A stretch of DNA of 64,000 nucleotides from Perna viridis. Its lineage: Eukaryota. A model generated the notes under the pieces. That model did not search any database and had not been told where the DNA came from. It saw only the letters and a list, made by a program, of their open reading frames with translations. The stretch is taken from the NCBI GenBank assembly GCA_037379345.1, contig CM074521.1, forward strand, positions 26,002,704 to 26,066,703, in the 5' to 3' direction. Both the position numbers and the translations under genes were made by a program. This document shows, one piece after another, positions 1 to 64,000 of the stretch (its first letter is position 1; every line of letters starts with the position of its first letter).

Positions 1-337
1 CTAGAATGTTAGATTAGCAACAATTTCAACTGCTTTTAAATGGATATGTAGATTTTATGTTAATTGAAAAAAAAAACTACAAATAAACAACAAAAACACA
101 TACAACATGAGAAAGAATTGGTGAGACGAGTAGCAGTAAGTTCAAAAAGACAACAATCACATAAACAACAAAACAAATTAAAAAGTTTCAAATCTCCATA
201 AAAATGACAAAAAAACTCATTGAGGAATAACATTTATGAGGAGCTGTACTTGGCTTCTCTTTGACATGTATGCCTGTTTAGTTTGGGCAAAATATTTTTG
301 AAATGTTCTCAATCTGCTGATGAAAAAAATCACTTAC

Positions 338-1501
338 CCGTTGATTGTGTTATTAAAGATGTTGTTCCTGTAGGTGTTTGACCAGTTGGTGGGGTAGTAG
401 CTGATGTTGTAGCAGAAACAGTAGCAGTTGTGGTCAGACTAACAGTTGTTGTAGGTGGAGCAGTAGTACCTGATGTAGTCTGGCTGGCTGTTGAACCAGT
501 TGTAGTACCTTGTGTGGTTGGTGGTGCAGTGGTACCTGATGTAGTCTGACTAACTGTTGTACCAGATGTAGTACCTTGTGTGGTTGGTGATGCAGGAGTT
601 CCTGATGTGGTCTGACTAGCTGTTGTTCCAGAAGTAGTTCCTTGTGTAGTTGGTGAAGCAGTGGTACCCGATGTGGTCTGACTAGCTGTTGTTCCAGATG
701 TAGAACTTTGTGTGGTAGTAGGAGGAGGTGTGGTTGGTGGAGCAGTGGTACCTGATGTAGTCTGACTAGCTGTTGTGCCAGATGTAGAACTTTGTGTGGT
801 AGTAGGAGGAGTGGTTCGTGGAGCAGTGGTACCTGATGTGGTTTGACTAGCTGTTGTGCCAGAAGTAGTTCCTTGTGTAGTTAGTGAAGCAGTGGTACCC
901 GATGTGGTCTGACTAGCTGTTGTGCCAGATGTAGAACTTTGTGTGGTAGTAGGAGGAGGAGTGGTTGGTGGAGCAGTGGTACCTGATGTGGTTTGACTAG
1001 CTGTTGTGCCAGAAGTAGTTCCTTGTGTAGTTGGTGAAGCAGTGGTACCCGATGTGGTCTGACTAGCTGTTGTGCCAGATGTAGAACTTTGTGTGGTAGT
1101 AGGAGGAGGAGTGGTTCGTGGAGCAGTGGTACCTGATGTGGTTTGACTAGCTGTTGTGCCAGAAGTAGTTCCTTGTGTAGTTGGTGAAGCAGTGGTACCC
1201 GATGTGGTCTGACTGGCTGTTGTGCCAGTTGTAGAACTTTGTGTGGTAGAACTTGGAGGAGTGGTTGGTGGAGCAGTGGTACCTGATGTAGTCAGACTAG
1301 CTGTTGTTCCAGAAGTAGTTCCTTGTGTAGTTTGTGGAGCAGTAGTTCCTGATGTGGTCTGACTAGCTGTTGTACCTGATGTAGAACCTGTAGTTGTTGT
1401 AACAGAGGTTGTACCTTGTGTGGTCGGAGGAGCAGTGGTACCAGATGTTGTCTCGCTAACTGTTGCAGTTGTGGTTCCTACAGTTGTTGTTGAAGGTGTA
1501 C
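338..1501 (-). CDS. PTS mucin exon (1164 nt, phase 1-1)
   Basis: TTTTAAG|GTACACCT acceptor and ACGG|GTAAGT donor; TTQGTTSGTTASQ/TTPPPPTTTQSST repeats; length divisible by 3. Confidence 0.85.
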
Positions 1502-43500: not shown

Positions 43501-46500
43501 AACTAAAATCATACATGCAAAGCAACAAAAGTAAATGAGCAACTCGGACTCCACTAAAAACTGGGAGCATGGACCAGGTGCACCGGTAGGGTAAGCGTCC
43601 TCTGCTTTTCTAGAAACACCCGCCGAGTTGCTCATCTACCATCAAGTCCATGGTAGACAAACGAGGAAAAGTAAACTATGACCCGTTGAATAAATCAGTT
43701 TTCATGGTGCTGATGGATACATCATAATGATTCACGAGTTCATGATGACGACCATAAAGCTTCTGTAGTGATGACTTCAATCTTGTAGCAACATAACTCT
43801 GTTCCAGAAGCCTATTTGTTAGAGTTCTAGCGCGATACAAAAAGTCTGCGTAGTTTCGGCAAGCTCAGGCATAACGTATGAGTTGTGATATGAACACTCC
43901 ATACGCAGGAGCCAAAGGGATGTTGCCACAGATGAAAGGAAAGTTGATAATTCTGAATGAAAAGTCATCACGTTTGTCGTAAAATTTGGTCAATAGTTTT
44001 CCTTTACCATCGATTTCTAAGTGTAGGTCAAGATATGAGGCTGACTTCACAATGTCTGTAGTATCTTTTATCTCAAGTACTTTTGGGTAGATGTGATATA
44101 TCAAATCCCCAAAATTAGGATTGTTTAAAGATAATACGTCATCTATATAGCGGAAACTGAGATTGAAGGATCTAGCCAAACAATATTCTTTCTTTCTGAT
44201 CAAATCAGCTATAAAGTCAGCCTCATAAGAGTGAAGAAATAGGTCAGCAAGTACATGAGCACAATTTGTTCCCATTGGAATGCCAACCGTTTGTTAAAAA
44301 GCACGTCCACCACACTGGACAAATATGTTGTCGATTAAAAACTCCAGCATTTTGTAAACATCTTCCTCTGTATATTTGGAAGATGATTTGGAATTATTTC
44401 TTACAAAGTATGAGGAATCTCTACCAAGAACTATATATTTGTATCTAGGTGTACCATCTTTTTTTGTATAATGTTTTTAAGTAGGGATTTTAACTGAGTA
44501 TGGGGAATAGAAGTATACAGTGTTGAAAAATCATAGGTTTTAATGATATTATATTCAGATAATAGTCTTGAACTGATTGTCTCCAAAAGATCTTTCGAAT
44601 TTTTCAGGATCCACATTGATTTAATACCACTACGGGAGTAACAAGTGTTGTGGTAGGACTGCAGACCCTCTTTGACAGTTGTTAGTATAGAAGTTAAAAG
44701 TTTTGAAAGAGGTTTGGTGATACATTTTGCAGATCCAGCTATGAAACGTTGTTTGTATGGATTCTATGATATATGATTCTTGCAAATATGCTTTTTGGAA
44801 AGATACACATCAATGTTATATGATTCCTGCAACCCACAAATAGTTCTGTGGCATTTTCAATTTGACTTAATCGAATTCAGAAAATTGCTTCTAAGTAAAA
44901 AGTCATGCTCAAATTGGAAGGTACATATATACTGATACTTAACAAAAAGGAATATTCTCACACTCAAAATTTAAAACTCAATATGTCTCCAAATAAAAAC
45001 AAAAAGAGCCTCACCACAATGTTATGGTCGTCATCTCTGATATATTGGAACTCTTCGGGGGTCTCTTTGTAACCAACTTGGAATTTCTGAACAAATCCAG
45101 TGCTACCACCTTGGAGTATGATGGCTGTTACTTGAGCAGTTGTTGGAAATGATATGACAACAGATGGTTTTTGATCATTCATAGAAGGAGACCATGCTTG
45201 ACCATCAATTTGACCAATTCCAGATTCTTGATTGCTGCTGTATTTTATCAAACTGTCATCAATAATTCCAATCTTTCTCATTTCATCAGCACATTCACCT
45301 AGTTAAAACAATTATTCAAGTAAGGCAAGAAATTTTGTATCGACTAAAATTTCAAAAACTTCAGGTCAATTTTATTATATATGTATTCAGACCAAACTTT
45401 AGTGAATGAAATAAAAAGTTTAAGTGATGAAAGACAAAATTGTATATTGATTGTCTCCCTTTAAATTACACAATTTAAAGAAAGTGCTAAAACAAAAACA
45501 TCTTACTCTTTAGGAATCATTTTGTGGAAACAATCATGACTCACCTCTTGTTGTGGTAGAAGCTGTAGTTGTAGGTGTCGGTGTAGATGTTACCGTTGGT
45601 GATGTACTCGTAATTGTAGCTAAAAATATTAACAAAATTATAAGATTTTGTATTGCATTTCTTTCTATATCTGCTATTAAATGATGAAGGAATTGATGGA
45701 ATCAGTAAATATAAATATTGCATTAAGCTTTCTATACACAACAACCCATGACCTATAAAATCCATATAAAAGTAATGAAAATGTATAATGTTCAGAAGCA
45801 ATACGTTCCTCAATATTGTTATATTTATTCATTACAAAATACTTGTGAGGCTCATACAGTATTGAATGAACGTGTTGCCTCAGAACCATCAGGCAGGAAA
45901 ATTCATACATTGGTACTAAAACAAAAAGACTTGAAAAATCTACAAGGAATATGTCAATATGACAAAATGCATTTGCAATATAAAGGTTGAATATCAATCT
46001 GCATTAAAATACACATGGATAGTTTGTAGGATTATCTGACTGGAACACTCATGCAAAGGAATTAGGATCTGCCTTGTCCAAAGGTTCCGTGGGGTCAGTA
46101 TATTTGGGCAAAAGCGTATCTGAAAAAAGAACAGATCAGATTTAACAGAAGATATTTCATGCTTAACTTATATTGAAATACTACTGAACTTTCCAAAATT
46201 GTGAATCGTAGAACAACATCTCGGAAAAAATAGTTCACCAAAAGATATTTTATAATTTTCAGCCAGACCCGATATCATCAATTAAAAAGTAATTTGAGTT
46301 GGAAAAAGAAATAAGTTCCAATATAGATTCAAGTTCATAACACAATTATTTACTATTTCAAAAGAATGAATCCTTTATTTGACCCTGCATCCAATCTTTC
46401 ATAGTAACTTAATAGATCAATGTACAAACACCTACCTGTCCCTGTTGATGTTATAGCTGAAAAGACAAAAAATAACATGTTCATCTTTATGGCATATGAT

Positions 46501-49500
46501 TCTATTTTTAATTGTCACAGATAACATGTAAACATATTTCAAATTAACCTAGTAGGTCAGTTAAATACAAACAATTTTTAAACAGGAGCATTTTAAACAT
46601 AAATTATTTCATCTTTTACTGTGCATTTTAGTATCAACATGTACATGCACAAAAAGAAACTAAATCAATTAAACTTGATTCAAACACTAAATCTAAAAAT
46701 TGAAAACCAATTCAAAAAAATCATCTTCTTATTCAAAGAAAAAACTCATTGATATTCAAAAACTTACGGAACATGCATCCAAAGAGTTCAAAGCTGAACA
46801 ATGGCCTATTTTGCCAAGACAGTGGGAATATTCTAACGCCATTTCCTTTTGCCATTGGATAAATACGTTTGTTTGATACTTGATTAATACCATTGTTTCC
46901 TTTGAATATCTAAAATGAAAGGCAAATATATGTCTACAAAAATTTAATGAGAAATGAGAAAAAAAATACATGCTGTCAGCGAATTTGATTAAACATTGAA
47001 ATATATGAAGTTTTCAAGTCCAGTGTTAAAAAAGAAACACGCATTTAATGATACTTTATCTTCCACTGTTACTTTTCTCATATCTGCAAATGATAATAAC
47101 AGCTTGTCTCCCTTAACAAGCATCCAGCAATTTTTTCTTATCATACACATGCTTAAGGGGATCATTTTTCATTGATTCTTTAAAACTATAATCATATTTT
47201 AATTGAAAAAAAATCTGCTGTGATTTCAAAATTCTGGTTCCACCAAACCACAAACATCCCTAAATTTTTTTGTACAACACAAAAACATTCTACGGTATTA
47301 AAACTCAACATCATTATAACAACTTACACCTTTCACTGGTTCCCAGTTTCCATTTTCTGTGTGAACTTCTATCCTGAAAGATTTGACAAAACCAGAACCA
47401 ACACCTGAAATACTACCACCATGGAAATGTATTTTAGAGAAGGCCCCTGTTTGTCCATTGAACAACACCTCTATAAATGACCCATTCTCTAAGCCTTTCA
47501 CAGGAACCCATGGTTTTTCATTTATTACACCATTGCCACTATCACTGTCCTTTGTAGAAAATTTGATAGTTTGGCCTTTTATTTCAGTCAGTACATAATC
47601 ACAAGAACCTGTAAATAAAAAAAAAACATTAAAATAATTACAAATATAATCACCTCCACTACAGCAAGGCTAAAAAAAGACATATCTCTGCAAAAATGCA
47701 AATAAATTATACACAACGATGATAAGTATCTCCCAAAATACAAATACAAAATGCTTCCACTTCAAACAGTCCTTAATTGTATGCCAAGTAAAAACACTTT
47801 AATTCATCAGAAGAACCAAAATACCCATTTACAAGAAGTCCACTTCTCATTATTTCAAGACATTCTGAGTAAAAAAGACATGCTACTATTGTATGTAACT
47901 AAACCCATGTTCCTTCATATTTGATTCATTTTTTATATAGTCCTCTTTTCCCCTATATTTCATAAGTATTATTAAATTCTACATTTACACATAATAGTTA
48001 ATATTCAGACATACCAGCAGTGGTAGTGCTCGGTGATGTTCCAGTAGATACCACTGAAGTTAATTCTATAATAAACACAAAAATAAAATCTATAATTAAG
48101 CAGAAAAAATTGTAAATACATAGGAATGAAAACTTAGAAACAGACATAAAAAAATCATGTCTTTAAATAATAAGTCACTGAAGTCAAAAATAAACTAAAT
48201 AAATAGTATGAAAACTATGATCTTACCAATTTCAAAACAAGCATGGATCTGTACTTGGAGCTTGACTGGTTTGTAGGCATCAATCTTATCTTGAGGAGTT
48301 ATGATGATTTCAACTTTCTTCACATCTGGTTCAGTTCCTACATTTGTTGCTACTTCATTCACAGGAACCTGAAATAAGGCAATATGATTTCAATCCACAA
48401 AAAATGGCAAATCATGCTCACTACCACCACATTCAATTGCACAAAAATACACAGACAAACATCTTTCAATTTATTTGGTATGAACACTCATGAAAAAATA
48501 CAGATACAAACACGACAAAAGTTCAATATCCTACCTGTTTTGTTGTCACAGTGCCATCAGGAGCAGTGAATTTCACAGTGAATGATTTAATGTTATCAGT
48601 TGAAACCAATTTCACTTCTTTTATAGGTCTCTCCTCTGAAGGTGTGTATTCCACAGAAAGTGTTGGTTGGGAACTTTCAAATGGGGTCATGGATGTTGGT
48701 CTCAAGTCTTCAACATTTCCTGTACTATCACTAACAGACAATTCACTACTTGGAATAAATGTTGGTGACTCCATACCATCTGTTATTTCGCAAACAGGAG
48801 TTGTACTGGCAGTTCCTGTAAAGCAACAAAAACTCCAATCAATATCAGCTGCTGTAAGTTCTGTTTGCCAGAAATATTTCTCAACAAAACATGTTCTGTT
48901 GACTCAAAAAGTGATGGTCCACATTTTTATACAGATGTAAGGGATATAACAAAACGTACCTGTAGTAGTAATGCCTGGTGGTGTGGCTGTACTTGAAACT
49001 TTCTCTGAGGTTGAACTTACAGCAGTGGTTACTGTAGTTGTTGATTCTATGAAAGAAAACCAATAGACACTGTAACTACATAGATCAAATTAATAGACTG
49101 ATACCTACATTACAAATCAGATTTATAACAGAATTAAACACTGACTGCATGTTCAGGAAAAGATTGTGTATTCAAAACAAAGCAAAAAAAGAACAGATGA
49201 CTGGAAAATAATCAAATGACTTATTATCTAATCTCGGCAATTAGTATTCTTCAAGAAAACAATTTTTAACAACTGATTTGATACTGCCAACATTATTCAC
49301 TGAAACACCAATCAAACTGATCACTGATGTTTTGGTATATTCATTCAACCACAATAAGGCATTCACATACGTACCAACTTCAAAGCAAGCATGTATCTGT
49401 ATTTGGAGTTTGACTGGTTTGTAAGCGTCAATTTTGTCCTCAGGTGTTACAATAATTTCAACTTTCTTTACAAATGGTCTTGTTCCAACACTTGTTGCAA

Positions 49501-52500
49501 CCTCATCCACAGGTACCTGTACAAAAATCAAAAACATGTATATACAACCTTTCTACATGTAGCAATCAAAGCATAACCATAATCACAATATTAGTTATGG
49601 AAAATGTCTAGGATTTATGAGTCATTCACTGTACGGTTTATTTGAATTGCAAAGAAAAACTCTAACATGATAACTGCGAAGAAAGCATACCTGTTTTGTT
49701 GTCACTGAACCATCGGGATTAGTGAATTTCACTGTAAATGATTTAATGTTGTCCGTTGACACCAGCTTAACTTCTTTTACAGGTCTTTCTTCTGACGGTG
49801 TGTATACTATGGAAAGTGTTGGTTCAGAACTTTCAAATGGAGTATCAGAGGTTGGTCTCAGGTTCTCAATATTTCCTGTTTTGTCACTCACAGATAATTC
49901 ACTACTTGGAATAAATGTAGGTGACTCCATACCATCTGTTATTTCACAAAGAGGAGTTGTACTGGCTGTTCCTGTAAAACAATCAGGTCACTCTCGTCAT
50001 TACATGCAAAGAAAACATAATTTGTTATTTCTCGAACCATTTTAAGTTGACAAAATCAATTGAATTTTTAGACAAGTGTATCATCTCTTCCAACAGAACT
50101 TTTGTACTTGACAGTTGCATAAACAGTATCAAATATTTCTGAACTAACCTGTACTTGATGTACTTGGTGGTGCAGTTGTACTGGTTACTTTCTTTGAGAC
50201 AGAAGAAACAGGTGTGGTAGCAGTTGTTGTTGATTCTGCAAAATAATTAAGAATATCAATTGTTTGTGACAAAGATAAAAGATTATTGCACAACAAATGT
50301 TATGAAAACCAAAATCTTTAAAAGTATTAAAAGTATTGTCACATAACTACAATGCACAAACTGATGTCTACCAAAAATGATGCTAAGGTATTGTTTTGTT
50401 GATTTCCACTGTTCTTAACAAATAAAATAATTAATATTCCATCATATAAAAGTCACATACCAAGTTCAAAGCAAGCATGGATCTGTACTTGGAGCTTGAC
50501 TGGTTGGTAGGCATCAATCTTATCTTGAGGAGTTATGATGATTTCAACTTTCTTCACATCTGGTTCAGTTCCTACATTTGTTGCTACTTCATTCACAGGA
50601 ACCTGAAATAAGGCAATATGATTTTAATCAACTACCAAATGGCAGATCATGCTCACTACCACCACATTCAATTGCACAAAAATACACAGACAAACATCTT
50701 TCAATTTATTTGGTATGAACACTCATGAAAAAATACAGATACAAACACGACAAAAGTTCAATATCCTACCTGTTTTGTTGTCACAGTGCCATCAGGAGCA
50801 GTGAATTTCACAGTGAATGATTTAATGTTATCAGTTGAAACCAATTTCACTTCTTTTATAGGTCTCTCCTCTGAAGGTGTGTATTCCACAGAAAGTGTTG
50901 GTTGGGAACTTTCAAATGGGGTCTTAGATGTTGGTCTCAAGTCTTCAACATTTCCTGTACTATCACTAACAGACAATTCACTACTTGGAATAAATGTTGG
51001 TGACTCCATACCATCTGTTATTTCGCAAACAGGAGTTGTACTGGCAGTTCCTGTAAAGCAACAAAAACTCCAATCAATATCAGCTGCTGTAAGTTCTGTT
51101 TGCCAGAAATATTTCTCAACAAAACATGTTCTGTTGACTCAAAAAGTGATGGTCCACATTTTTATACAGATGTAAGGGATATAACAAAACGTACCTGTAG
51201 TAGTAATGCCTGGTGGTGTGGCTGTACTTGAAACTTTCTCTGAGGTTGAACTTACAGCAGTGGTTACTGTAGTTGTTGATTCTATGAAAGAAAACCAATA
51301 GACACTGTAACTACATAGATCAAATTAATAGACTGATACCTACATTACAAATCAGATTTATAACAGAATTTAACACTGACTGCATGTTCAGGAAAAGATT
51401 GTGTATTCAAAACAAAGCAAAAAAAAGAACAGATGACTGGAAAATAATCAAATGACTTATTATCTAATTTCGGCAATTAGTATTCTTCAAGAAAACAATT
51501 TTTAACAACTGATTTGATACTGCCAACATTATTCACTGAAACACCAATCAAACTGATCACTGATGTTTTGGTATATTCATTCAACCACAATAAGGCATTC
51601 ACATACGTACCAACTTCAAAGCAAGCATGTATCTGTATTTGGAGTTTGACTGGTTTGTAAGCGTCAATTTTGTCCTCAGGTGTTACAATAATTTCAACTT
51701 TCTCTACAAATGGTCTTGTTCCAACACTTGTTGCAACCTCATCCACAGGTACCTGTACAAAAATCAAAACCATGTATATACAACCTTTCTACATGTAGCA
51801 ATCAAAGCATAACCATAATCACAATATTAGTTATGCAAAATGTCTAGGATTTACGAGTCATTCACTGTACGGTTTATTTGAATTGCAAAGAAAAAATCTA
51901 ATATGATAACTGCGAAGAAAGCATACCTGTTTTGTTGTCACTGAACCATCGGGATTAGTGAATTTCACTGTAAATGATTTAATGTTGTCCGTTGACACCA
52001 GCTTAACTTCTTTTACAGGTCTTTCTTCTGACGGTGTGTATACTATGGAAAGTGTTGGTTCAGAACTTTCAAATGGAGTATCAGAGGTTGGTCTCAGGTT
52101 CTCAATATTTCCTGTTTTGTCACTCACAGATAATTCACTACTTGGAATAAATGTAGATGACTCCATACCATCTGTTATTTCACAAAGAGGAGTTGTACTG
52201 GCTGTTCCTGTAAAACAATCAGGTCACTCTCGTCATTACATGCAAAGAAAACATAATTTGTTATTTCTCGAACCATTTTAAGTTGACAAAATCAATTGAA
52301 TTTTCAGACAAGTGTATCATCTCTTCCAACAGAACTTTTGTACTTGACAGTTGCATAAACAGTATCAAATATTTCTGAACTAACCTGTACTTGATGTACT
52401 TGGTGGTGCAGTTGTACTGGTTACTTTCTTTGAGACAGAAGAAACAGGTGTGGTAGCAGTTGTTGTTGATTCTGCAAAATAATTAAGAATATCAATTGTT

Positions 52501-55500
52501 TGTGACAAAGATAAAAGATTATTGCACAACAAATGTTATGAAAACCAAAATCTTTAAAAGTATTAAAAGTATTGTCACATAACTACAATGCACAAACTGA
52601 TGTCTACCAAAAATGATGCTAAGGTATTGTTTTGTTGATTTCCACTGTTCTTAACAAATAAAATAATTAATATTCCATCATATAAAAGTCACATACTAAG
52701 TTCAAAGCAAGCATGGATCTGTACTTGGAGCTTGACTGGTTTGTAGGCATCAATCTTATCTTGAGGAGTTATGATGATTTCAACTTTCTTCACATCTGGT
52801 TCAGTTCCTACATTTGTTGCTACTTCATTCACAGGAACCTGAAATAAGGCAATATGATTTTAATCAACTACCAAATGGCAAATCATGCTCACTACCACCA
52901 CATTCAATTGCACAAAAATACACAGACAAACATTTTTCAATTTATTTGGTATGAACACTCATGAAAAAATACAGATACAAACACGACAAAAGTTCAATAT
53001 CCTACCTGTTTTGTTGTCACAGTGCCATCAGGAGCAGTGAATTTCACAGTGAATGATTTAATGTTATCAGTTGAAACCAATTTCACTTCTTTTATAGGTC
53101 TCTCCTCTGAAGGTGTGTATTCCACAGAAAGTGTTGGTTGGGAACTTTCAAATGGGGTCTTAGATGTTGGTCTCAAGTCTTCAACATTTCCTGTACTATC
53201 ACTAACAGACAATTCACTACTTGGAATATATGTTGGTGACTCCATACCATCTGTTATTTCGCAAACAGGAGTTGTACTGGCAGTTCCTGTAAAGCAACAA
53301 AAACTCCAATCAATATCAGCTGCTGTAAGTTCTGTTTGCCAGAAATATTTCTCAACAAAACATGTTCTGTTGACTCAAAAAGTGATGGTTCACATTTTTA
53401 TACAGATGTAAGGGATATAACAAAACGTACCTGTAGTAGTAATGCCTGGTGGTGTGGCTGTACTTGAAACTTTCTCTGAGGTTGAACTTACAGCAGTGGT
53501 TACTGTAGTTGTTGATTCTATGAAAGAAAACCAATAGACACTGTAACTACATAGATCAAATTAATAGACTGATACCTACATTACAAATCAGATTTATAAA
53601 AGAATTTAACACTGACTGCATGTTCAGGAAAAGATTGTGTATTCAAAACAAAGCAAAAAAAGAACAGATGACTGGAAAATAATCAAATGACTTATTATCT
53701 AATCTCGGCAATTAGTATTCTTCAAGAAAACAATTTTAAACAACTGATTTGATACTGCCAACATTATTCACTGAAACACCAATCAAACTGATCACTGATG
53801 TTTTGGTATATTCATTCAACCACAATAAGGCATTCACATACGTACCAACTTCAAAGCAAGCATGTATCTGTATTTGGAGTTTGACTGGTTTGTAAGCGTC
53901 AATTTTGTCCTCAGGTGTTACAATAATTTCAACTTTCTTTACAAATGGTCTTGTTCCAACACTTGTTGCAACCTCATCCACAGGTACCTGTACAAAAATC
54001 AAAACCATGTATATACAACCTTTCTACATGTAGCAATCAAAGCATAACCATAATCACAATATTAGTTATGCAAAATGTCTAGGATTTACGAGTCATCCAC
54101 TGTACGGTTTATTTGAATTGCAAAGAAAAAATCTAATATGATAACTGCGAAGAAAGCATACCTGTTTTGTTGTCACTGAACCATCGGGATTAGTGAATTT
54201 CACTGTAAATGATTTAATGTTGTCCGTTGACACCAGCTTAACTTCTTTTACAGGTCTTTCTTCTGACGGTGTGTATACTATGGAAAGTGTTGGTTCAGAA
54301 CTTTCAAATGGAGTATCAGAGGTTGGTCTCAGGTTCTCAATATTTCCTGTTTTGTCACTCACAGATAATTCACTACTTGGAATAAATGTAGGTGACTCCA
54401 TACCATCTGTTATTTCACAAAGAGGAGTTGTACTGGCTGTTCCTGTAAAACAATCAGGTCACTCTCGTCATTACATGCAAAGAAAACATAATTTGTTATT
54501 TCTCGAACCATTTTAAGTTGACAAAATCAATTGAATTTTTAGACAAGTGTATCATCTCTTCCAACAGAACTTTTGTACTTGACAGTTGCATAAACAGTAT
54601 CAAATATTTCTGAACTAACCTGTACTTGATGTACTTGGTGGTGCAGTTGTACTGGTTACTTTCTTTGAGACAGAAGAAACAGGTGTGGTAGCAGTTGTTG
54701 TTGATTCTGCAAAATAATTAAGAATATCAATTGTTTGTGACAAAGATAAAAGATTATTGCACAACAAATGTTATGAAAACCAAAATCTTTAAAAGTATTA
54801 AAAGTATTGTCACATAACTACAATGCACAAACTGATGTCTACCAAAAATGATGCTAAGGTATTGTTTTGTTGATTTCCACTGTTCTTAACAAATAAAATA
54901 ATTAATATTCCATCATATAAAAGTCACATACCAAGTTCAAAGCAAGCATGGATCTGTACTTGGAGCTTGACTGGTTTGTAGGCATCAATCTTATCTTGAG
55001 GAGTTATGATGATTTCAACTTTCTTCACATCTGGTTCAGTTCCTACATTTGTTGCTACTTCATTCACAGGAACCTGAAATAAGGCAATATGATTTTAATC
55101 AACTACCAAATGGCAAATCATGCTCACTACCACCACATTCAATTGCACAAAAATACACAGACAAACATTTTTCAATTTATTTGGTATGAACACTCATGAA
55201 AAAATACAGATACAAACACGACAAAAGTTCAATATCCTACCTGTTTTGTTGTCACAGTGCCATCAGGAGCAGTGAATTTCACAGTGAATGATTTAATGTT
55301 ATCAGTTGAAACCAATTTCACTTCTTTTATAGGTCTCTCCTCTGAAGGTGTGTATTCCACAGAAAGTGTTGGTTGGGAACTTTCAAATGGGGTCTTAGAT
55401 GTTGGTCTCAAGTCTTCAACATTTCCTGTACTATCACTAACAGACAATTCACTACTTGGAATATATGTTGGTGACTCCATACCATCTGTTATTTCGCAAA

Positions 55501-58500
55501 CAGGAGTTGTACTGGCAGTTCCTGTAAAGCAACAAAAACTCCAATCAATATCAGCTGCTGTAAGTTCTGTTTGCCAGAAATATTTCTCAACAAAACATGT
55601 TCTGTTGACTCAAAAAGTGATGGTTCACATTTTTATACAGATGTAAGGGATATAACAAAACGTACCTGTAGTAGTAATGCCTGGTGGTGTGGCTGTACTT
55701 GAAACTTTCTCTGAGGTTGAACTTACAGCAGTGGTTACTGTAGTTGTTGATTCTATGAAAGAAAACCAATAGACACTGTAACTACATAGATCAAATTAAT
55801 AGACTGATACCTACATTACAAATCAGATTTATAACAGAATTTAACACTGACTGCATGTTCAGGAAAAGATTGTGTATTAAAAACAAAGCAAAAAAAGAAC
55901 AGATGACTGGAAAATAATCAAATGACTTATTATCTAATCTCGGCAATTAGTATTCTTCAAGAAAACAATTTTAAACAACTGATTTGATACTGCCAACATT
56001 ATTCACTGAAACACCAATCAAACTGATCACTGATGTTTTGGTATATTCATTCAACCACAATAAGGCATTCACATACGTACCAACTTCAAAGCAAGCATGT
56101 ATCTGTATTTGGAGTTTGACTGGTTTGTAAGCGTCAATTTTGTCCTCAGGTGTTACAATAATTTCAACTTTCTTTACAAATGGTCTTGTTCCAACACTTG
56201 TTGCAACCTCATCCACAGGTACCTGTACAAAAATCAAAACCATGTATATACAACCTTTCTACATGTAGCAATCAAAGCATAACCATAATCACAATATTAG
56301 TTATGCAAAATGTCTAGGATTTACGAGTCATTCACTGTACGGTTTATTTGAATTGCAAAGAAAAAATCTAATATGATAACTGCGAAGAAAGCATACCTGT
56401 TTTGTTGTCACTGAACCATCGGGATTAGTGAATTTCACTGTAAATGATTTAATGTTGTCCGTTGACACCAGCTTAACTTCTTTTACAGGTCTTTCTTCTG
56501 ACGGTGTGTATACTATGGAAAGTGTTGGTTCAGAACTTTCAAATGGAGTATCAGAGGTTGGTCTCAGGTTCTCAATATTTCCTGTTTTGTCACTCACAGA
56601 TAATTCACTACTTGGAATAAATGTAGGTGACTCCATACCATCTGTTATTTCACAAAGAGGAGTTGTACTGGCTGTTCCTGTAAAACAATCAGGTCACTCT
56701 CGTCATTACATGCAAAGAAAACATAATTTGTTATTTCTCGAACCATTTTAAGTTGACAAAATCAATTGAATTTTTAGACAAGTGTATCATCTCTTCCAAC
56801 AGAACTTTTGTACTTGACAGTTGCATAAACAGTATCAAATATTTCTGAACTAACCTGTACTTGATGTACTTGGTGGTGCAGTTGTACTGGTTACTTTCTT
56901 TGAGACAGAAGAAACAGGTGTGGTAGCAGTTGTTGTTGATTCTGCAAAATAATTAAGAATATCAATTGTTTGTGACAAAGATAAAAGATTATTGCACAAC
57001 AAATGTTATGAAAACCAAAATCTTTAAAAGTATTAAAAGTATTGTCACATAACTACAATGCACAAACTGATGTCTACCAAAAATGATGCTAAGGTATTGT
57101 TTTGTTGATTTCCACTGTTCTTAACAAATAAAATAATTAATATTCCATCATATAAAAGTCACATACCAAGTTCAAAGCAAGCATGGATCTGTACTTGGAG
57201 CTTGACTGGTTTGTAGGCATCAATCTTATCTTGAGGAGTTATGATGATTTCAACTTTCTTCACATCTGGTTCAGTTCCTACATTTGTTGCTACTTCATTC
57301 ACAGGAACCTGAAATAAGGCAATATGATTTTAATCAACTACCAAATGGCAAATCATGCTCACTACCACCACATTCAATTGCACAAAAATACACAGACAAA
57401 CATCTTTCAATTTATTTGGTATGAACACTCATGAAAAAATACAGATACAAACACGACAAAAGTTCAATATCCTACCTGTTTTGTTGTCACAGTGCCATCA
57501 GGAGCAGTGAATTTCACAGTGAATGATTTAATGTTATCAGTTGAAACCAATTTCACTTCTTTTATAGGTCTCTCCTCTGAAGGTGTGTATTCCACAGAAA
57601 GTGTTGGTTGGGAACTTTCAAATGGGGTCTTAGATGTTGGTCTCAAGTCTTCAACATTTCCTGTACTATCACTAACAGACAATTCACTACTTGGAATAAA
57701 TGTTGGTGACTCCATACCATCTGTTATTTCGCAAACAGGAGTTGTACTGGCAGTTCCTGTAAAGCAACAAAAACTCCAATCAATATCAGCTGCTGTAAGT
57801 TCTGTTTGCCAGAAATATTTCTCAACAAAACATGTTCTGTTGACTCAAAAAGTGATGGTCCACATTTTTATACAGATGTAAGGGATATAACAAAACGTAC
57901 CTGTAGTAGTAATGCCTGGTGGTGTGGCTGTACTTGAAACTTTCTCTGAGGTTGAACTTACAGCAGTGGTTACTGTAGTTGTTGATTCTATGAAAGAAAA
58001 CCAATAGACACTGTAACTACATAGATCAAATTAATAGACTGATACCTACATTACAAATCAGATTTATAACAGAATTTAACACTGACTGCATGTTCAGGAA
58101 AAGATTGTGTATTCAAAACAAAGCAAAAAAAAGGACAGATGACTGGAAAATAATCAAATGACTTATTATCTAATCTCGGCAATTAGTATTCTTCAAGAAA
58201 ACAATTTTTAACAACTGATTTGATACTGCCAACATTATTCACTGAAACACCAATCAAACTGATCACTGATGTTTTGGTATATTCATTCAACCACAATAAG
58301 GCATTCACATACGTACCAACTTCAAAGCAAGCATGTATCTGTATTTGGAGTTTGACTGGTTTGTAAGCGTCAATTTTGTCCTCAGGTGTTACAATAATTT
58401 CAACTTTCTTTACAAATGGTCTTGTTCCAACACTTGTTGCAACCTCATCCACAGGTACCTGTACAAAAATCAAAACCATGTATATACAACCTTTCTACAT

Positions 58501-61500
58501 GTAGCAATCAAAGCATAACCATAATCACAATATTAGTTATGCAAAATGTCTAGGATTTACGAGTCATTCACTGTACGGTTTATTTGAATTGCAAAGAAAA
58601 ACTCTAATATGATAACTGCGAAGAAAGCATACCTGTTTTGTTGTCACTGAACCATCGGGATTAGTGAATTTCACTGTAAATGATTTAATGTTGTCCGTTG
58701 ACACCAGCTTAACTTCTTTTACAGGTCTTTCTTCTGACGGTGTGTATACTATGGAAAGTGTTGGTTCAGAACTTTCAAATGGAGTATCAGAGGTTGGTCT
58801 CAGGTTCTCAATATTTCCTGTTTTGTCACTCACAGATAATTCACTACTTGGAATAAATGTAGGTGACTCCATACCATCTGTTATTTCACAAAGAGGAGTT
58901 GTACTGGCTGTTCCTGTAAAACAATCAGGTCACTCTCGTCATTACATGCAAAGAAAACATAATTTGTTATTTCTCGAACCATTTTAAGTTGACAAAATCA
59001 ATTGAATTTTTAGACAAGTGTATCATCTCTTCCAACAGAACTTTTGTACTTGACAGTTGCATAAACAGTATCAAATATTTCTGAACTAACCTGTACTTGA
59101 TGTACTTGGTGGTGCAGTTGTACTGGTTACTTTCTTTGAGACAGAAGAAACAGGTGTGGTAGCAGTTGTTGTTGATTCTGCAAAATAATTAAGAATATCA
59201 ATTGTTTGTGACAAAGATAAAAGATTATTGCACAACAAATGTTATGAAAACCAAAATCTTTAAAAGTATTAAAAGTATTGTCACATAACTACAATGCACA
59301 AACTGATGTCTACCAAAAATGATGCTAAGGTATTGTTTTGTTGATTTCCACTGTTCTTAACAAATAAAATAATTAATATTCCATCATATAAAAGTCACAT
59401 ACCAAGTTCAAAGCAAGCATGGATCTGTACTTGGAGCTTGACTGGTTTGTAGGCATCAATCTTATCTTGAGGAGTTATGATGATTTCAACTTTCTTCACA
59501 TCTGGTTCAGTTCCTACATTTGTTGCTACTTCATTCACAGGAACCTGAAATAAGGCAATATGATTTTAATCAACTACCAAATGGCAAATCATGCTCACTA
59601 CCACCACATTCAATTGCACAAAAATACACAGACAAACATCTTTCAATTTATTTGGTATGAACACTCATGAAAAAATACAGATACAAACACGACAAAAGTT
59701 CAATATCCTACCTGTTTTGTTGTCACAGTGCCATCAGGAGCAGTGAATTTCACAGTGAATGATTTAATGTTATCAGTTGAAACCAATTTCACTTCTTTTA
59801 TAGGTCTCTCCTCTGAAGGTGTGTATTCCACAGAAAGTGTTGGTTGGGAACTTTCAAATGGGGTCTTAGATGTTGGTCTCAAGTCTTCAACATTTCCTGT
59901 ACTATCACTAACAGACAATTCACTACTTGGAATAAATGTTGGTGACTCCATACCATCTGTTATTTCGCAAACAGGAGTTGTACTGGCAGTTCCTGTAAAG
60001 CAACAAAAACTCCAATCAATATCAGCTGCTGTAAGTTCTGTTTGCCAGAAATATTTCTCAACAAAACATGTTCTGTTGACTCAAAAAGTGATGGTCCACA
60101 TTTTTATACAGATGTAAGGGATATAACAAAACGTACCTGTAGTAGTAATGCCTGGTGGTGTGGCTGTACTTGAAACTTTCTCTGAGGTTGAACTTACAGC
60201 AGTGGTTACTGTAGTTGTTGATTCTATGAAAGAAAACCAATAGACACTGTAACTACATAGATCAAATTAATAGACTGATACCTACATTACAAATCAGATT
60301 TATAACAGAATTTAACACTGACTGCATGTTCAGGAAAAGATTGTGTATTCAAAACAAAGCAAAAAAAAGAACAGATGACTGGAAAATAATCAAATGACTT
60401 ATTATCTAATTTCGGCAATTAGTATTCTTCAAGAAAACAATTTTAAACAACTGATTTGATACTGCCAACATTATTCACTGAAACACCAATCAAACTGATC
60501 ACTGATGTTTTGGTATATTCATTCAACCACAATAAGGCATTCACATACGTACCAACTTCAAAGCAAGCATGTATCTGTATTTGGAGTTTGACTGGTTTGT
60601 AAGCGTCAATTTTGTCCTCAGGTGTTACAATAATTTCAACTTTCTTTACAAATGGTCTTGTTCCAACACTTGTTGCAACCTCATCCACAGGTACCTGTAC
60701 AAAAATCAAAACCATGTATATACAACCTTTCTACATGTAGCAATCAAAGCATAACCATAATCACAATATTAGTTATGCAAAATGTCTAGGATTTACGAGT
60801 CATCCACTGTACGGTTTATTTGAATTGCAAAGAAAAAATCTAATATGATAACTGCGAAGAAAGCATACCTGTTTTGTTGTCACTGAACCATCGGGATTAG
60901 TGAATTTCACTGTAAATGATTTAATGTTGTCCGTTGACACCAGCTTAACTTCTTTTACAGGTCTTTCTTCTGACGGTGTGTATACTATGGAAAGTGTTGG
61001 TTCAGAACTTTCAAATGGAGTATCAGAGGTTGGTCTCAGGTTCTCAATATTTCCTGTTTTGTCACTCACAGATAATTCACTACTTGGAATAAATGTAGGT
61101 GACTCCATACCATCTGTTATTTCACAAAGAGGAGTTGTACTGGCTGTTCCTGTAAAACAATCAGGTCACTCTCGTCATTACATGCAAAGAAAACATAATT
61201 TGTTATTTCTCGAACCATTTTAAGTTGACAAAATCAATTGAATTTTTAGACAAGTGTATCATCTCTTCCAACAGAACTTTTGTACTTGACAGTTGCATAA
61301 ACAGTATCAAATATTTCTGAACTAACCTGTACTTGATGTACTTGGTGGTGCAGTTGTACTGGTTACTTTCTTTGAGACAGAAGAAACAGGTGTGGTAGCA
61401 GTTGTTGTTGATTCTGCAAAATAATTAAGAATATCAATTGTTTGTGACAAAGATAAAAGATTATTGCACAACAAATGTTATGAAAACCAAAATCTTTAAA

Positions 61501-64000
61501 AGTATTAAAAGTATTGTCACATAACTACAATGCACAAACTGATGTCTACCAAAAATGATGCTAAGGTATTGTTTTGTTGATTTCCACTGTTCTTAACAAA
61601 TAAAATAATTAATATTCCATCATATAAAAGTCACATACCAAGTTCAAAGCAAGCATGGATCTGTACTTGGAGCTTGACTGGTTTGTAGGCATCAATCTTA
61701 TCTTGAGGAGTTATGATGATTTCAACTTTCTTCACATCTGGTTCAGTTCCTACATTTGTTGCTACTTCATTCACAGGAACCTGAAATAAGGCAATATGAT
61801 TTTAATCAACTACCAAATGGCAAATCATGCTCACTACCACCACATTCAATTGCACAAAAATACACAGACAAACATTTTTCAATTTATTTGGTATGAACAC
61901 TCATGAAAAAATACAGATACAAACACGACAAAAGTTCAATATCCTACCTGTTTTGTTGTCACAGTGCCATCAGGAGCAGTGAATTTCACAGTGAATGATT
62001 TAATGTTATCAGTTGAAACCAATTTCACTTCTTTTATAGGTCTCTCCTCTGAAGGTGTGTATTCCACAGAAAGTGTTGGTTGGGAACTTTCAAATGGGGT
62101 CTTAGATGTTGGTCTCAAGTCTTCAACATTTCCTGTACTATCACTAACAGACAATTCACTACTTGGAATATATGTTGGTGACTCCATACCATCTGTTATT
62201 TCGCAAACAGGAGTTGTACTGGCAGTTCCTGTAAAGCAACAAAAACTCCAATCAATATCAGCTGCTGTAAGTTCTGTTTGCCAGAAATATTTCTCAACAA
62301 AACATGTTCTGTTGACTCAAAAAGTGATGGTTCACATTTTTATACAGATGTAAGGGATATAACAAAACGTACCTGTAGTAGTAATGCCTGGTGGTGTGGC
62401 TGTACTTGAAACTTTCTCTGAGGTTGAACTTACAGCAGTGGTTACTGTAGTTGTTGATTCTATGAAAGAAAACCAATAGACACTGTAACTACATAGATCA
62501 AATTAATAGACTGATACCTACATTACAAATCAGATTTATAACAGAATTTAACACTGACTGCATGTTCAGGAAAAGATTGTGTATTCAAAACAAAGCAAAA
62601 AAAAGAACAGATGACTGGAAAATAATCAAATGACTTATTATCTAATTTCGGCAATTAGTATTCTTCAAGAAAACAATTTTAAACAACTGATTTGATACTG
62701 CCAACATTATTCACTGAAACACCAATCAAACTGATCACTGATGTTTTGGTATATTCATTCAACCACAATAAGGCATTCACATACGTACCAACTTCAAAGC
62801 AAGCATGTATCTGTATTTGGAGTTTGACTGGTTTGTAAGCGTCAATTTTGTCCTCAGGTGTTACAATAATTTCAACTTTCTTTACAAATGGTCTTGTTCC
62901 AACACTTGTTGCAACCTCATCCACAGGTACCTGTACAAAAATCAAAACCATGTATATACAACCTTTCTACATGTAGCAATCAAAGCATAACCATAATCAC
63001 AATATTAGTTATGCAAAATGTCTAGGATTTACGAGTCATCCACTGTACGGTTTATTTGAATTGCAAAGAAAAAATCTAATATGATAACTGCGAAGAAAGC
63101 ATACCTGTTTTGTTGTCACTGAACCATCGGGATTAGTGAATTTCACTGTAAATGATTTAATGTTGTCCGTTGACACCAGCTTAACTTCTTTTACAGGTCT
63201 TTCTTCTGACGGTGTGTATACTATGGAAAGTGTTGGTTCAGAACTTTCAAATGGAGTATCAGAGGTTGGTCTCAGGTTCTCAATATTTCCTGTTTTGTCA
63301 CTCACAGATAATTCACTACTTGGAATAAATGTAGGTGACTCCATACCATCTGTTATTTCACAAAGAGGAGTTGTACTGGCTGTTCCTGTAAAACAATCAG
63401 GTCACTCTCGTCATTACATGCAAAGAAAACATAATTTGTTATTTCTCGAACCATTTTAAGTTGACAAAATCAATTGAATTTTTAGACAAGTGTATCATCT
63501 CTTCCAACAGAACTTTTGTACTTGACAGTTGCATAAACAGTATCAAATATTTCTGAACTAACCTGTACTTGATGTACTTGGTGGTGCAGTTGTACTGGTT
63601 ACTTTCTTTGAGACAGAAGAAACAGGTGTGGTAGCAGTTGTTGTTGATTCTGCAAAATAATTAAGAATATCAATTGTTTGTGACAAAGATAAAAGATTAT
63701 TGCACAACAAATGTTATGAAAACCAAAATCTTTAAAAGTATTAAAAGTATTGTCACATAACTACAATGCACAAACTGATGTCTACCAAAAATGATGCTAA
63801 GGTATTGTTTTGTTGATTTCCACTGTTCTTAACAAATAAAATAATTAATATTCCATCATATAAAAGTCACATACCAAGTTCAAAGCAAGCATGGATCTGT
63901 ACTTGGAGCTTGACTGGTTTGTAGGCATCAATCTTATCTTGAGGAGTTATGATGATTTCAACTTTCTTCACATCTGGTTCAGTTCCTACATTTGTTGCTA
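338..64000 (-). CDS. Giant multi-exon mucin-like protein with PTS repeats and >=20 discoidin/FA58C-like domains (partial; extends beyond both window ends)
   Basis: About 82 exons bounded by AG and GT (one GC) with mutually compatible phases; summed length ~24.3 kb; Thr/Ser-rich repeats; FA58C motifs in the 42.8-47.6 kb exons. Confidence 0.85.
2597..2732 (-). CDS. Domain A copy 2, C-terminal exon (VFNGDEEVIF...LDVEVRACFTTG)
   Basis: 136 nt, phase 0-1, AG/GT; paralogue of 16986-17121. Confidence 0.85.
2792..2910. repeat. 29-bp intronic minisatellite, 4 copies
   Basis: aatatacactttagtgtacaaaacactat repeated four times with single changes. Confidence 0.9.
3583..3887 (-). CDS. Domain A copy 2, N-terminal exon (CTNDEGMQNP...EYKNGQ), GC donor
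   Basis: 305 nt, phase 1-0; ends CAG|GCAAGT; paralogue of 18859-19172. Confidence 0.8.
5443..6039 (-). CDS. PTS mucin exon (597 nt)
   Basis: Acceptor TTCTTTAG is clear; donor CAAG|GTACGA is the best phase-1 candidate. Confidence 0.7.
6190..7005 (-). CDS. PTS mucin exon (816 nt)
   Basis: AG / GTAAAT boundaries, phase 1-1. Confidence 0.85.
7756..8283 (-). CDS. PTS mucin exon (528 nt)
   Basis: AG / GTAAGT boundaries, phase 1-1; overlaps ORF 7742..8170. Confidence 0.85.
8887..10017 (-). CDS. PTS mucin exon (1131 nt)
   Basis: AG / GTACTT boundaries, phase 1-1; overlaps ORF 8849..9904. Confidence 0.85.
10635..11255 (-). CDS. PTS mucin exon (621 nt)
   Basis: Same boundaries as its neighbour; phase 1-1. 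Confidence 0.85.
11873..12670 (-). CDS. PTS mucin exon (798 nt; begins GTTLSTTPPPPAPPSS)
   Basis: TTCAAG|GA acceptor; 5' part nearly identical to exon 39619-39951. Confidence 0.85.
13618..13668 (-). CDS. Thr-rich linker micro-exon (51 nt)
   Basis: CAAG acceptor, GTAAGA donor; PTPVSTASTTAGTTTL. Confidence 0.75.
   Translation of the reverse strand, partial: HLPQYQQLQLLLEQPH
13884..14043 (-). CDS. Domain B copy 2, C-terminal exon (KTFEGK...FFRVCYTPGTG)
   Basis: 160 nt, phase 0-1; paralogue of 40530-40683. Confidence 0.85.
14658..14938 (-). CDS. Domain B copy 2, N-terminal exon (VCENPVTFDF...VSENT)
   Basis: 281 nt, phase 1-0; paralogue of 41153-41436. Confidence 0.85.
15648..15728 (-). CDS. 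Thr-rich linker exon (81 nt)
   Basis: TTTTCTAG acceptor, GTAGTG donor, phase 1-1. Confidence 0.8.
16986..17121 (-). CDS. Domain A copy 1, C-terminal exon (IFSGDEQVIF...LDLEVRACFTTG)
   Basis: 136 nt, phase 0-1. Confidence 0.85.
18859..19172 (-). CDS. Domain A copy 1, N-terminal exon (CTSEEGMQNP...EYKNGE)
   Basis: 314 nt, phase 1-0, donor GAG|GTATGT. Confidence 0.85.
19589..19912 (-). CDS. PTS mucin exon, last of array 2 (donor uncertain)
   Basis: Acceptor TTCTGTAG is clear; the frame meets TAA near 19563, so a G|GTAC donor inside the repeat must be used or the exon is skipped. Confidence 0.55.
20866..22101 (-). CDS. PTS mucin exon (1236 nt)
   Basis: Array-2 acceptor and donor; phase 1-1. 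Confidence 0.85.
23062..23904 (-). CDS. PTS mucin exon (843 nt)
   Basis: Array-2 acceptor and donor; phase 1-1. Confidence 0.85.
24830..25468 (-). CDS. PTS mucin exon (639 nt)
   Basis: Inside ORF 24744..25514; AG / GTACTT boundaries. Confidence 0.85.
26395..27033 (-). CDS. PTS mucin exon (639 nt)
   Basis: Tandem copy. Confidence 0.85.
27959..28597 (-). CDS. PTS mucin exon (639 nt)
   Basis: Tandem copy. Confidence 0.85.
29524..30162 (-). CDS. PTS mucin exon (639 nt)
   Basis: Tandem copy. Confidence 0.85.
31088..31726 (-). CDS. PTS mucin exon (639 nt)
   Basis: Tandem copy. Confidence 0.85.
32653..33291 (-). CDS. PTS mucin exon (639 nt)
   Basis: Tandem copy. Confidence 0.85.
34217..35035 (-). 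CDS. PTS mucin exon (819 nt)
   Basis: Inside ORF 34158..35081; same splice sites. Confidence 0.85.
35937..36914 (-). CDS. PTS mucin exon (978 nt), first of array 2
   Basis: TATGTAG|GT acceptor and array-2 donor. Confidence 0.85.
38194..39452 (-). pseudogene. Decayed PTS pseudo-exon
   Basis: Acceptor CTAG|GT ACT AAA ACA GGA TAA gives an immediate stop; frameshifts; 8-nt deletion near 38277; eroded donor context. Confidence 0.8.
39619..39951 (-). CDS. PTS exon (333 nt; begins GTTLSTTPPPPAPPSS)
   Basis: Phase 1-1, donor GTAAGC. Confidence 0.8.
40173..40211 (-). CDS. Linker micro-exon (39 nt)
   Basis: TTTTCAG acceptor, GTAGGT donor; STVSSTTYSSST. Confidence 0.75.
40530..40683 (-). CDS. Domain B copy 1, C-terminal exon (KTFTGK...QFRVCYAPG)
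   Basis: 154 nt, phase 0-1. Confidence 0.85.
41153..41436 (-). CDS. Domain B copy 1, N-terminal exon (KICENPVTFDY...TEEI)
   Basis: 284 nt, phase 1-0. Confidence 0.85.
42073..42126 (-). CDS. Thr-rich linker micro-exon (54 nt)
   Basis: AG/GT, phase 1-1. Confidence 0.75.
42326..42379 (-). CDS. Thr-rich linker micro-exon (54 nt)
   Basis: AG/GT, phase 1-1. Confidence 0.75.
42802..42952 (-). CDS. FA58C/discoidin domain 2, C-terminal exon (VFEGNTD...ELRFEIVGCAE)
   Basis: F-x-GN-x-D and LRFE-x-x-GC motifs; 151 nt, phase 0-1. Confidence 0.85.
43396..44765 (-). mobile_element. 5'-truncated, disabled Penelope-like retroelement (RT core + 3' UTR) in an intron
   Basis: NPYKQRFIAGS, IKTYDFSTLYT, MGTNCA-x-x-LADLFL, FRYIDD, YLDL and YDKRDDF motifs; frameshifts and an in-frame TGA; frame ends near 43677. 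Confidence 0.9.
45015..45298 (-). CDS. FA58C/discoidin domain 2, N-terminal exon (ECADEM...AWSP...VTAIILQGG...FVQKFQVGY)
   Basis: AW, VTAI-x-x-QG and FV-x-x-F-x-V-x-Y discoidin motifs; 284 nt, phase 1-0. Confidence 0.85.
45545..45619 (-). CDS. Thr-rich linker exon (75 nt)
   Basis: TTTTAG acceptor, GTGAGT donor, phase 1-1. Confidence 0.8.
46436..46456 (-). CDS. 21-nt micro-exon (ITSTGT)
   Basis: TCTTTTCAG|CT ATA ACA TCA ACA GGG ACA G|GTAGGT; phase 1-1. Confidence 0.6.
46768..46909 (-). CDS. FA58C/discoidin domain 1, C-terminal exon (IFKGNNG...VRIFPLSW...FELFGCMF)
   Basis: VRI-x-P-x-x-W and FELFGC motifs; 142 nt, phase 0-1; different frame from the ORF-track call. Confidence 0.88.
47328..47608 (-). 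CDS. FA58C/discoidin domain 1, N-terminal exon (SCDYVL...PWVP...FVKSFRIEV)
   Basis: 281 nt, phase 1-0, donor GGT|GTAAGT. Confidence 0.85.
48015..48065 (-). CDS. Linker micro-exon (51 nt)
   Basis: AG / GTATGT, phase 1-1. Confidence 0.75.
48227..50235 (-). CDS. Macro-repeat unit: two discoidin-like domains + two linkers (340 aa)
   Basis: Exons 50149-50235, 49691-49971, 49375-49516, 48960-49046, 48535-48815, 48227-48368 (87/281/142 nt, twice). Confidence 0.85.
50461..52471 (-). CDS. Macro-repeat unit (6 exons, 340 aa)
   Basis: Exons 52385-52471, 51927-52207, 51611-51752, 51195-51281, 50770-51050, 50461-50602. Confidence 0.85.
52697..54706 (-). CDS. Macro-repeat unit (6 exons, 340 aa)
   Basis: Exons 54620-54706, 54162-54442, 53846-53987, 53431-53517, 53006-53286, 52697-52838. 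Confidence 0.85.
54932..56941 (-). CDS. Macro-repeat unit (6 exons, 340 aa)
   Basis: Exons 56855-56941, 56397-56677, 56081-56222, 55666-55752, 55241-55521, 54932-55073. Confidence 0.85.
57167..59177 (-). CDS. Macro-repeat unit (6 exons, 340 aa)
   Basis: Exons 59091-59177, 58633-58913, 58317-58458, 57901-57987, 57476-57756, 57167-57308. Confidence 0.85.
59403..61413 (-). CDS. Macro-repeat unit (6 exons, 340 aa)
   Basis: Exons 61327-61413, 60869-61149, 60553-60694, 60137-60223, 59712-59992, 59403-59544. Confidence 0.85.
61639..63649 (-). CDS. Macro-repeat unit (6 exons, 340 aa)
   Basis: Exons 63563-63649, 63105-63385, 62789-62930, 62373-62459, 61948-62228, 61639-61780. Confidence 0.85.
63875..64000 (-). 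CDS. Partial C-terminal domain exon of the next upstream unit
   Basis: ...KLQVQIHACFEL G|GTATGT; cut by the window edge. Confidence 0.85.

Follow-up and report, generated by a model that had tools for sequence, protein, structure and literature searches.

Concerted evolution of domain repeats is a known and uncommon process, enriched in host-pathogen proteins (PMC5100051). The closest systems, as described in the accessible portions of the papers cited here, are of two kinds. The first consists of coding exon-intron units amplified in tandem. In the Olduvai (DUF1220) domains of NBPF genes the unit is a 3-mer, with monomers about 18% apart, unit copies about 1-1.6% apart and 19 copies in NBPF20 (PMC9584774). 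The KIV-2 VNTR of LPA is a coding exon-intron unit of 5.6 kb, with up to about 40 copies and a polymorphic copy number (PMC11462820). The second kind consists of large secreted proteins. F5/8 domains have been reported to be characteristic of lophotrochozoan gel-forming mucins (Lang et al. 2016; PMC4948705), and the flatworm protein Mlig-ap2 (14,794 aa) combines VWD, C8, TIL and LDLa domains, repeats of 21x255 and 25x221 aa, and TIL/TSP1 (PMC6410801, PMC8621496, PMC9229212).

The locus described here lies in and beyond a 64,000-nucleotide stretch of the Perna viridis genome (contig CM074521.1, positions 26,002,704 to 26,066,703), hereafter the window. Like the Olduvai triplets, it has diverged exon-intron monomers amplified as a multi-domain unit of six exons; these belong to three monomers of two exons in NBPF, and to two domains (A and B) of three exons here. 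It differs from the published description of the triplets in its 35 copies, in its unrelated, secreted, putatively discoidin-like domain, in A and B introns that cannot be aligned and in an array that can be skipped in RNA. With LPA KIV-2 it shares highly homologous coding exon-intron units, a folded module gained per step and a similar scale; KIV-2, however, is described as one domain per 5.6 kb with proven copy-number polymorphism, whereas the present array is known from one assembly. The three VWD-C8-TIL units, PTS regions, F5/8 domains and C-terminal cystine knot of the host gene recall the lophotrochozoan mucins of PMC4948705. Unlike the proteins described there, it is predicted to encode about 31,000 aa, with TSP1 repeats and about 100 degenerate F5/8-like domains missed by Pfam, and the later VWD units were not found in it. 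The order VWD/C8/TIL/LDLa, large central tandem repeats, TIL/TSP1 is also that of Mlig-ap2 as published; this likeness is one of domain order, and the repeats here are multi-exon. A literature search with limited coverage of subscription journals found no paper on the host gene or the array. The repeat mechanism is already known; the new elements are the in-frame skip of 177.5 kb including the array, the size and the unnamed domain family.

The reading preferred here, with a probability of about 0.7, is that of a transcribed higher-order repeat in a giant mucin gene, in which a dimer was amplified 35-fold, likely by unequal crossing-over combined with purifying selection, within a cassette that is likely alternatively spliced.

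Extent and structure of the array

Self-comparison of the window shows repeats, 99.0-99.6% identical, with a period of 2,234-2,236 bp, which start at position 48,224 and reach the end of the window; matches at the half-period are restricted to exons. A flank of 400 kb around the window was fetched from the assembly (723 Mb, 46 contigs), and positions outside the window are given in these extended coordinates. The earlier note, made from the letters of the window, had placed a macrosatellite of 2.2-kb six-exon coding units at 48227..64000. The repeat is real, but the array extends past 64,000, to about 127,055 (contig position ~26,129,758), and spans 79 kb. Its formula in this one assembly, from which the unit number is taken, is A(BA)35, that is, 35 units and one extra A half, or 71 domains. 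Seven of the units are inside the window (48224..64000, minus strand).

Each unit contains six minus-strand exons with GT-AG ends, and the exon sizes (87, 281 and 142 nt) are the same in both halves. The exons next to the 3' end of the array, assigned from GT-AG ends and RNA joints, are as follows. Exon B1 (50149..50235, 87 nt) encodes a Thr/Ser/Pro linker and recurs every ~2,235 bp; B2 (49691..49971, 281 nt) encodes the N-terminal two thirds of domain B, and B3 (49375..49516, 142 nt) its C-terminal third. A1 (48960..49046, 87 nt) is again a Thr/Ser/Pro linker, A2 (48535..48815, 281 nt) encodes the N-terminal two thirds of domain A, and A3 (48227..48368, 142 nt) is the end of the last domain A.

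Once spliced, the six exons give 340 stop-free codons. The GT-AG splice sites of all six are intact, and stop codons absent, in 35 of 35 units. A contribution of exactly 340 aa per copy had been proposed, and 34 of the 35 units conform to it; the exception, unit 23, encodes 337 aa because of a 9-nt deletion, in frame, within a linker exon. This deletion is the sole length change among the array exons, which contain no frameshift. In unit 3, the last base of exon A3 (window 52,697) carries a G-to-A change at donor position -1, by which the split codon is altered too; from its position, the change may weaken splicing of this unit.

Divergence, selection and recombination

The very similar proteins of the two halves, remarked on together with their identical exon sizes in the earlier note, have 139 of 169 residues in common (dS 0.67, dN 0.11). 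The lack of similarity between their introns was confirmed: the three A/B intron pairs align no better than shuffles (z from -0.24 to 1.64, with 19-182 of 300 shuffles equalling the score). Divergence from unit to unit is below 1.5% (about 0.2-0.8%). The array is thus a higher-order coding repeat under concerted evolution, whose units are far closer to one another than the A and B monomers are, introns included.

Introns had also been held to be as homogeneous as exons. Whole units are indeed near-identical including their introns, but pi among units is 0.78% for introns against 0.21% for exons, in which synonymous sites reach 0.39% and replacement sites 0.14%, and variable columns number 53 of 1,219 in introns against 20 of 1,020 in exons (Fisher p=0.002). 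The introns are less homogeneous than the exons because replacement changes are depleted in the latter. Synonymous sites vary at 9 of ~246 positions and replacement sites at 11 of ~771 (one of the 11 being the split-codon change). Intron variability matches that of synonymous sites (p=0.73), while replacement sites differ from introns (p=0.0002) and from synonymous sites (p=0.036); as these tests assume independent sites and recombining copies are not independent, the p values serve as guides. Purifying selection acts on the array protein, and homogenisation of the exons carries the introns with it.

The distance between units grows with their separation (Mantel rho 0.63, reached by none of 2,000 permutations), neighbours being the most alike. 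The four-gamete test is failed by 88 of 666 informative site pairs, and the 3'-terminal unit is the most divergent, with 9 of the 36 singleton variants. Similarity between neighbours, incompatible sites and a divergent end unit are the traces that unequal crossing-over or local conversion should leave. The proposal that the domain was duplicated anciently, and the dimer amplified or homogenised recently, agrees with the A/B dS of 0.67 against 0.4-0.8% among units, with the likeness of neighbours and with the recombination signal; "ancient" holds in a relative sense only, the pair being lineage-specific on the tree described below.

In the first 30 codons of exon 2, dS between A and B is 0.38, against 0.69-0.85 elsewhere. 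Exon-limited conversion between A and B, which this low value suggested, was set aside as the sites are too few.

The repeated domain

A Pfam scan of exons A2, A3, B2 and B3 returned no family, and the intact Mytilus domain P0002, which is 60-62% identical to the array domain, has no Pfam F5/8 match. A word-index homologue search with exon A2 for longer proteins retained none of 341 candidates, and a PDB sequence search with the domain exon gave three chance-level matches only. A profile of exon 2 has one match in the PDB, to a CBM32 chain (E 0.11); its hhalign comparison with the canonical F5/8 exon of the host gene is not significant (probability 0.8%). A search of 1.84 billion representatives yielded 47 matches to the domain at E<=0.001. 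Ten of these were looked up; those with a species name belong to Mytilus, Liolophura, Lineus and Macrostomum and are mucin-like. The closest of them make a mytilid mussel the likely source of the DNA. Bacterial invasin/YadA-like matches (P0016, P0039) were set aside as repeat-driven chance.

The AlphaFold2 model of P0002 is an all-beta sandwich, with a pLDDT of 64-96 over ten-residue blocks of residues 191-320. Its best matches are neuropilin b, coagulation factor C, factor V/VIII C2, discoidin I and DDR1 domains (Foldseek best E 9e-8; VIA-align Z 12.8-11.7, rmsd ~3 Å, 3.1 Å for the best, over ~125 residues). CBM32 and DOC domains rank close behind, and Atlas structural neighbours at 0.81-0.82 are leads only. 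The array domain is thus predicted to have an F5/8 type C (discoidin)-like fold outside Pfam F5/8, as modelled on P0002 rather than on A or B, and no function follows from the fold. Exactly two cysteines are present per domain slice, at the first and second-last positions, and may form a disulfide. F5/8 type C domains have one cysteine near each domain end.

Host gene

The array belongs to a gene of about 311 kb with the domain order of gel-forming mucins, as read from Pfam matches on exons. It extends about 43 kb to the left of the window (TSP1, TIL, cystine knot) and about 204 kb to the right (EGF, VWD-C8-TIL, LDLa). Upstream exons encode EGF-like domains, three VWD-C8-TIL units and LDLa modules. 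The VWD, C8 and TIL matches fall on three successive exon groups at 267-251 kb; some of them score below the gathering threshold, the exons having been scanned one at a time. Between 129 and 214 kb there are 20 further, diverged copies of the repeated domain. Downstream exons encode a canonical F5/8 domain, long PTS stretches, TIL, TSP1 and, in the last exon, a cystine knot (DAN, E 3.5e-8; Cys_knot, E 2.7e-5). About 9,200 PTS-like codons are found 3' of the cassette, and open reading frames and Pfam place PTS exons and further degenerate domains of the gene at 1..43000 of the window (minus strand). On this domain order, the host is taken to be a giant gel-forming mucin gene. Predicted lengths of ~3,050 + 5,700 + 12,040 + 190 + 10,600 give ~31,500 aa for a long form and 13,700 aa for a short form; these come from a rough exon-chain script in which some exons are visibly wrong.

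Other features were observed in and around the gene. An intron contains a broken retroelement fragment (window 43,260-44,770, minus strand), which we take from its motifs to be reverse-transcriptase-like; two pieces of it scanned with Pfam gave zero matches. Close to their 3' ends, two PTS open frames (window 19,577 and 38,279) depart from the frame of sister exons; real frameshifts, alternative donors and errors of the assembly are all possible reasons. On the plus strand, at about -150,000 to -93,000 (extended coordinates), the host gene has a paralogous mucin as its tail-to-tail neighbour, which contains exons for TSP1, TIL, cystine-knot-like and same-family domains and a PTS open frame of 5,143 codons.

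Transcripts and the skipped cassette

Of the 24 listed sequencing runs, 14 hold at least half of the unit's words, and six more hold a fraction of 0.36-0.41, about the share of the exons. Joints were examined in four of these six (X15, X16, X19 and X20, from four studies), whose RNA nature is presumed and not recorded; there was one contig per run and joint, and expression cannot be read from contig depth. All four RNA-like runs contain the joint from unit to unit as well as the five joints inside the unit, and three of the four contain the exit joint from 48,227 to 48,065. RNA joints were observed between 42.9 and 50.2 kb, together with the one from 223,160 to 45,619; the link of the 5' end of the cassette to the VWD exons is predicted.

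Beyond the exit joint, the long form runs through four single-copy exons defined by RNA joints on the minus strand (48013-48065, 47328-47606, 46768-46909 and 46436-46456), a region (46436..48065) with a weak Pfam F5/8 match (E 0.0026). These are followed by a shared linker exon (45541..45619, minus strand), whose upstream joint is to 46,436 in the long form and to a 36-nt exon at 223,160-223,195 in the short form. The exon at 45013..45294 (minus strand; Pfam and RNA joints), downstream of the cassette, encodes the canonical F5/8 type C domain (PF00754, E 5e-7).

The joint of exon 45,541-45,619 to the 36-nt exon was found in three of the four runs (X15, X16 and X20). The letters of the 36-nt exon occur once in the genome, at 223,160-223,195; its phase is 1-1, and the joint is GT-AG and in frame. 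The resulting short form is without 177.5 kb, the whole array included. X15 carries both the skip and the long joints, and X19 the long joint only. The skip is likely to represent alternative splicing of the cassette.

Relatives and origin of the A/B pair

Amplification of the same domain family has occurred in parallel in three Mytilus species, a chiton and a nemertean. In M. californianus, the "mucin-17-like" protein XP_052090872 repeats a 209-aa monomer 21 times, the copies being 98.9% alike in the domain and showing no odd-even pattern; a M. galloprovincialis record has three copies that are 99-100% alike and 88% identical to those of M. californianus. The chiton protein (Liolophura) has several domain copies, and in Lineus eight near-identical copies are interleaved with another module. 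The Mytilus proteins resemble the present array in their domain family (60-62% identity) and in the homogenisation of the array within each species. They differ in having a one-domain 209-aa unit where the unit here has two domains and 340 aa, and A and B fall in a separate tree group. In that tree, a quick one from which long-branch outgroups were left out, A, B and the Logan exon P0001 group together (SH-aLRT 99), apart from the Mytilus units and from the upstream copies of the host gene. Judged by this grouping, the A/B pair appears to be lineage-specific.

P0001 is 88-90% identical to A2 and lies on a contig of 2,222 bp, approximately the length of a unit. Of 11 diagnostic sites, eight agree with A and one with B, and P0001 is absent from this assembly, where its best match is 85%. 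P0001 is possibly a collapsed unit of a related species. As A is near the ancestral state, the likeness of P0001 to A does not date the duplication. Metagenome contigs gave 315 pattern matches, none of which was confirmed, and the exon-intron unit of relatives was accordingly not seen there. One further domain exon copy, 45% identical to P0001, is located on another chromosome (G000:C10:40,618,225-40,618,470).

Amplification and possible role

Under the preferred reading, two diverged copies of a discoidin-fold domain, each with a short Thr/Ser linker, would have been amplified as one 2.2-kb unit. The modules appear to be in phase 1 at both ends, so that gain or loss of whole units would keep the frame. 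If A copies crossed over with one another at a shift of two domains, exons and introns would be copied together, and differences between units would be erased but not those between A and B. As the A and B introns have diverged, only two-domain register shifts should pair well, and the dimer would thereby become the unit of turnover. An array ending in A would agree with an origin in which two A-like copies on either side of B misaligned.

Relative to the short form (~14,000 aa), the long form (~31,000 aa) would gain about 92 folded domains. The least certain part of the reading, which we consider about an even bet, is that these domains make weak, multivalent, non-covalent contacts in the mucus gel, as the CysD domains of MUC2 do, for which non-covalent cross-links have been shown (PMC3195396). 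With similar uncertainty, isoform choice and unit number would tune the mesh of the gel.

Alternatively, the domains could be inert, protease-resistant spacers, the size of the array reflecting near-neutral turnover of a recombination-prone gene. The host gene does contain further exon-intron arrays, at least three and independent of this one, of which two are made up of PTS only, and relatives have amplified different units. The parallel amplification of one domain family in the molluscs and the nemertean listed above argues in the opposite direction, as does the skip joint bounding the cassette, which suggests a use for the long form; this alternative is rather unlikely, while keeping some weight.

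It has also to be considered that the domains are lectins, forming a multivalent surface for microbes or food particles whose avidity would be set by unit number, a reading that takes up the valency idea of the earlier note. The fold class includes discoidins and the CBM32 galactose-binding modules, and both the purifying selection on the array and the enrichment of concerted domain repeats in host-pathogen proteins (PMC5100051, in its accessible portions) are compatible with such a role. A shared fold, however, shows no function, and diversifying selection among units was not seen. Moreover, tryptophan is absent from the domain and there are only four tyrosines per 340-aa unit, while carbohydrate sites of discoidin/CBM32-like folds usually use aromatic stacking. 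A lectin function is accordingly regarded as improbable.

Instead of being alternatively spliced, the short transcript itself could come from an allele in which the cassette has been lost by genomic deletion, as a large structural polymorphism. Intronic breakpoints would yield the same spliced joint, tandem-rich genes are prone to such deletions, and X19 shows the long form alone. Contig depths of shared versus long-only exons are 505 vs ~3, 84 vs 6.4, 11 vs 5.1 and 124 vs 124; this spread between runs fits tissue regulation better than allele dosage, although depth is a poor measure and the samples are possibly pools. A deletion allele seems to be the source with only a small chance, and alternative splicing is retained.

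Inflation of the array by the assembly, through duplicated reads or merged haplotypes, is very unlikely: the units are more than 98.5% identical and 10 of the 35 fall into four groups of identical units, but 29 are distinct, 37 shared variants among units form a positional gradient, the only exon length change is in frame, there is no N in 364 kb, array contigs are 13-60x deeper than adjacent long-form exons in the four RNA-like runs (a weak hint), and the recombination footprint argues against duplication by assembly.

A more far-reaching proposal can be put forward tentatively, as one that we think could well be wrong. One splice choice over a 177.5-kb intron would switch between a mucin of ~14,000 aa and a titin-sized one of ~31,000 aa with about 92 extra discoidin-fold modules; these modules would be the spiralian counterpart of the CysD cross-linker, amplified independently in mussels, a chiton and a nemertean. 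Mucus mechanics could then be adjusted from tissue to tissue through splicing and from population to population through unit number. If true, this would imply an intact protein that is secreted and approaches the longest known proteins in size, a cassette of ~18,000 aa that can be switched on or off, and a discoidin-like domain family, as yet without a name, amplified in mucins by several spiralian lineages. As to the way in which filter-feeding bivalves produce mucus of differing properties, the host gene is a concrete candidate.

Other arrays of the host gene

Several further repeats were noted along the gene. The PTS exon-plus-intron array at window 23,330-34,775 has a period of ~1,565 bp, a 639-nt exon and about seven copies. 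Its alternate units (2/4, 3/5) differ by 0.0-0.2% and neighbours by ~1.0%, a pattern that reads as a nascent two-unit higher-order repeat. In extended coordinates, the skipped cassette includes a second homogenised array (136,845-145,778), with a one-domain, four-exon unit of ~1,787 bp in five copies at 99.5% and flanking copies that diverge. Eight modules of two types, in the order K Q Q K K Q K Q, occupy 228,237-242,387; their exons are 94-98% alike within a type and 85-88% between types, their introns mostly 25-60% (up to 91%), and they represent either a decayed dimer array or exon-limited conversion. The presence of such stages in one gene (monomer, nascent dimer, mature dimer and decayed dimer) would offer a single-locus test of the origin of higher-order repeats in coding DNA. 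Four domain copies at 154,825-167,408 show an X Y X' Y' pattern, that of an older two-domain duplication. Finally, a PTS exon-plus-intron array at -24,618 to -17,238 has a period of ~858 bp and about 8.6 copies that are 1-3% divergent.
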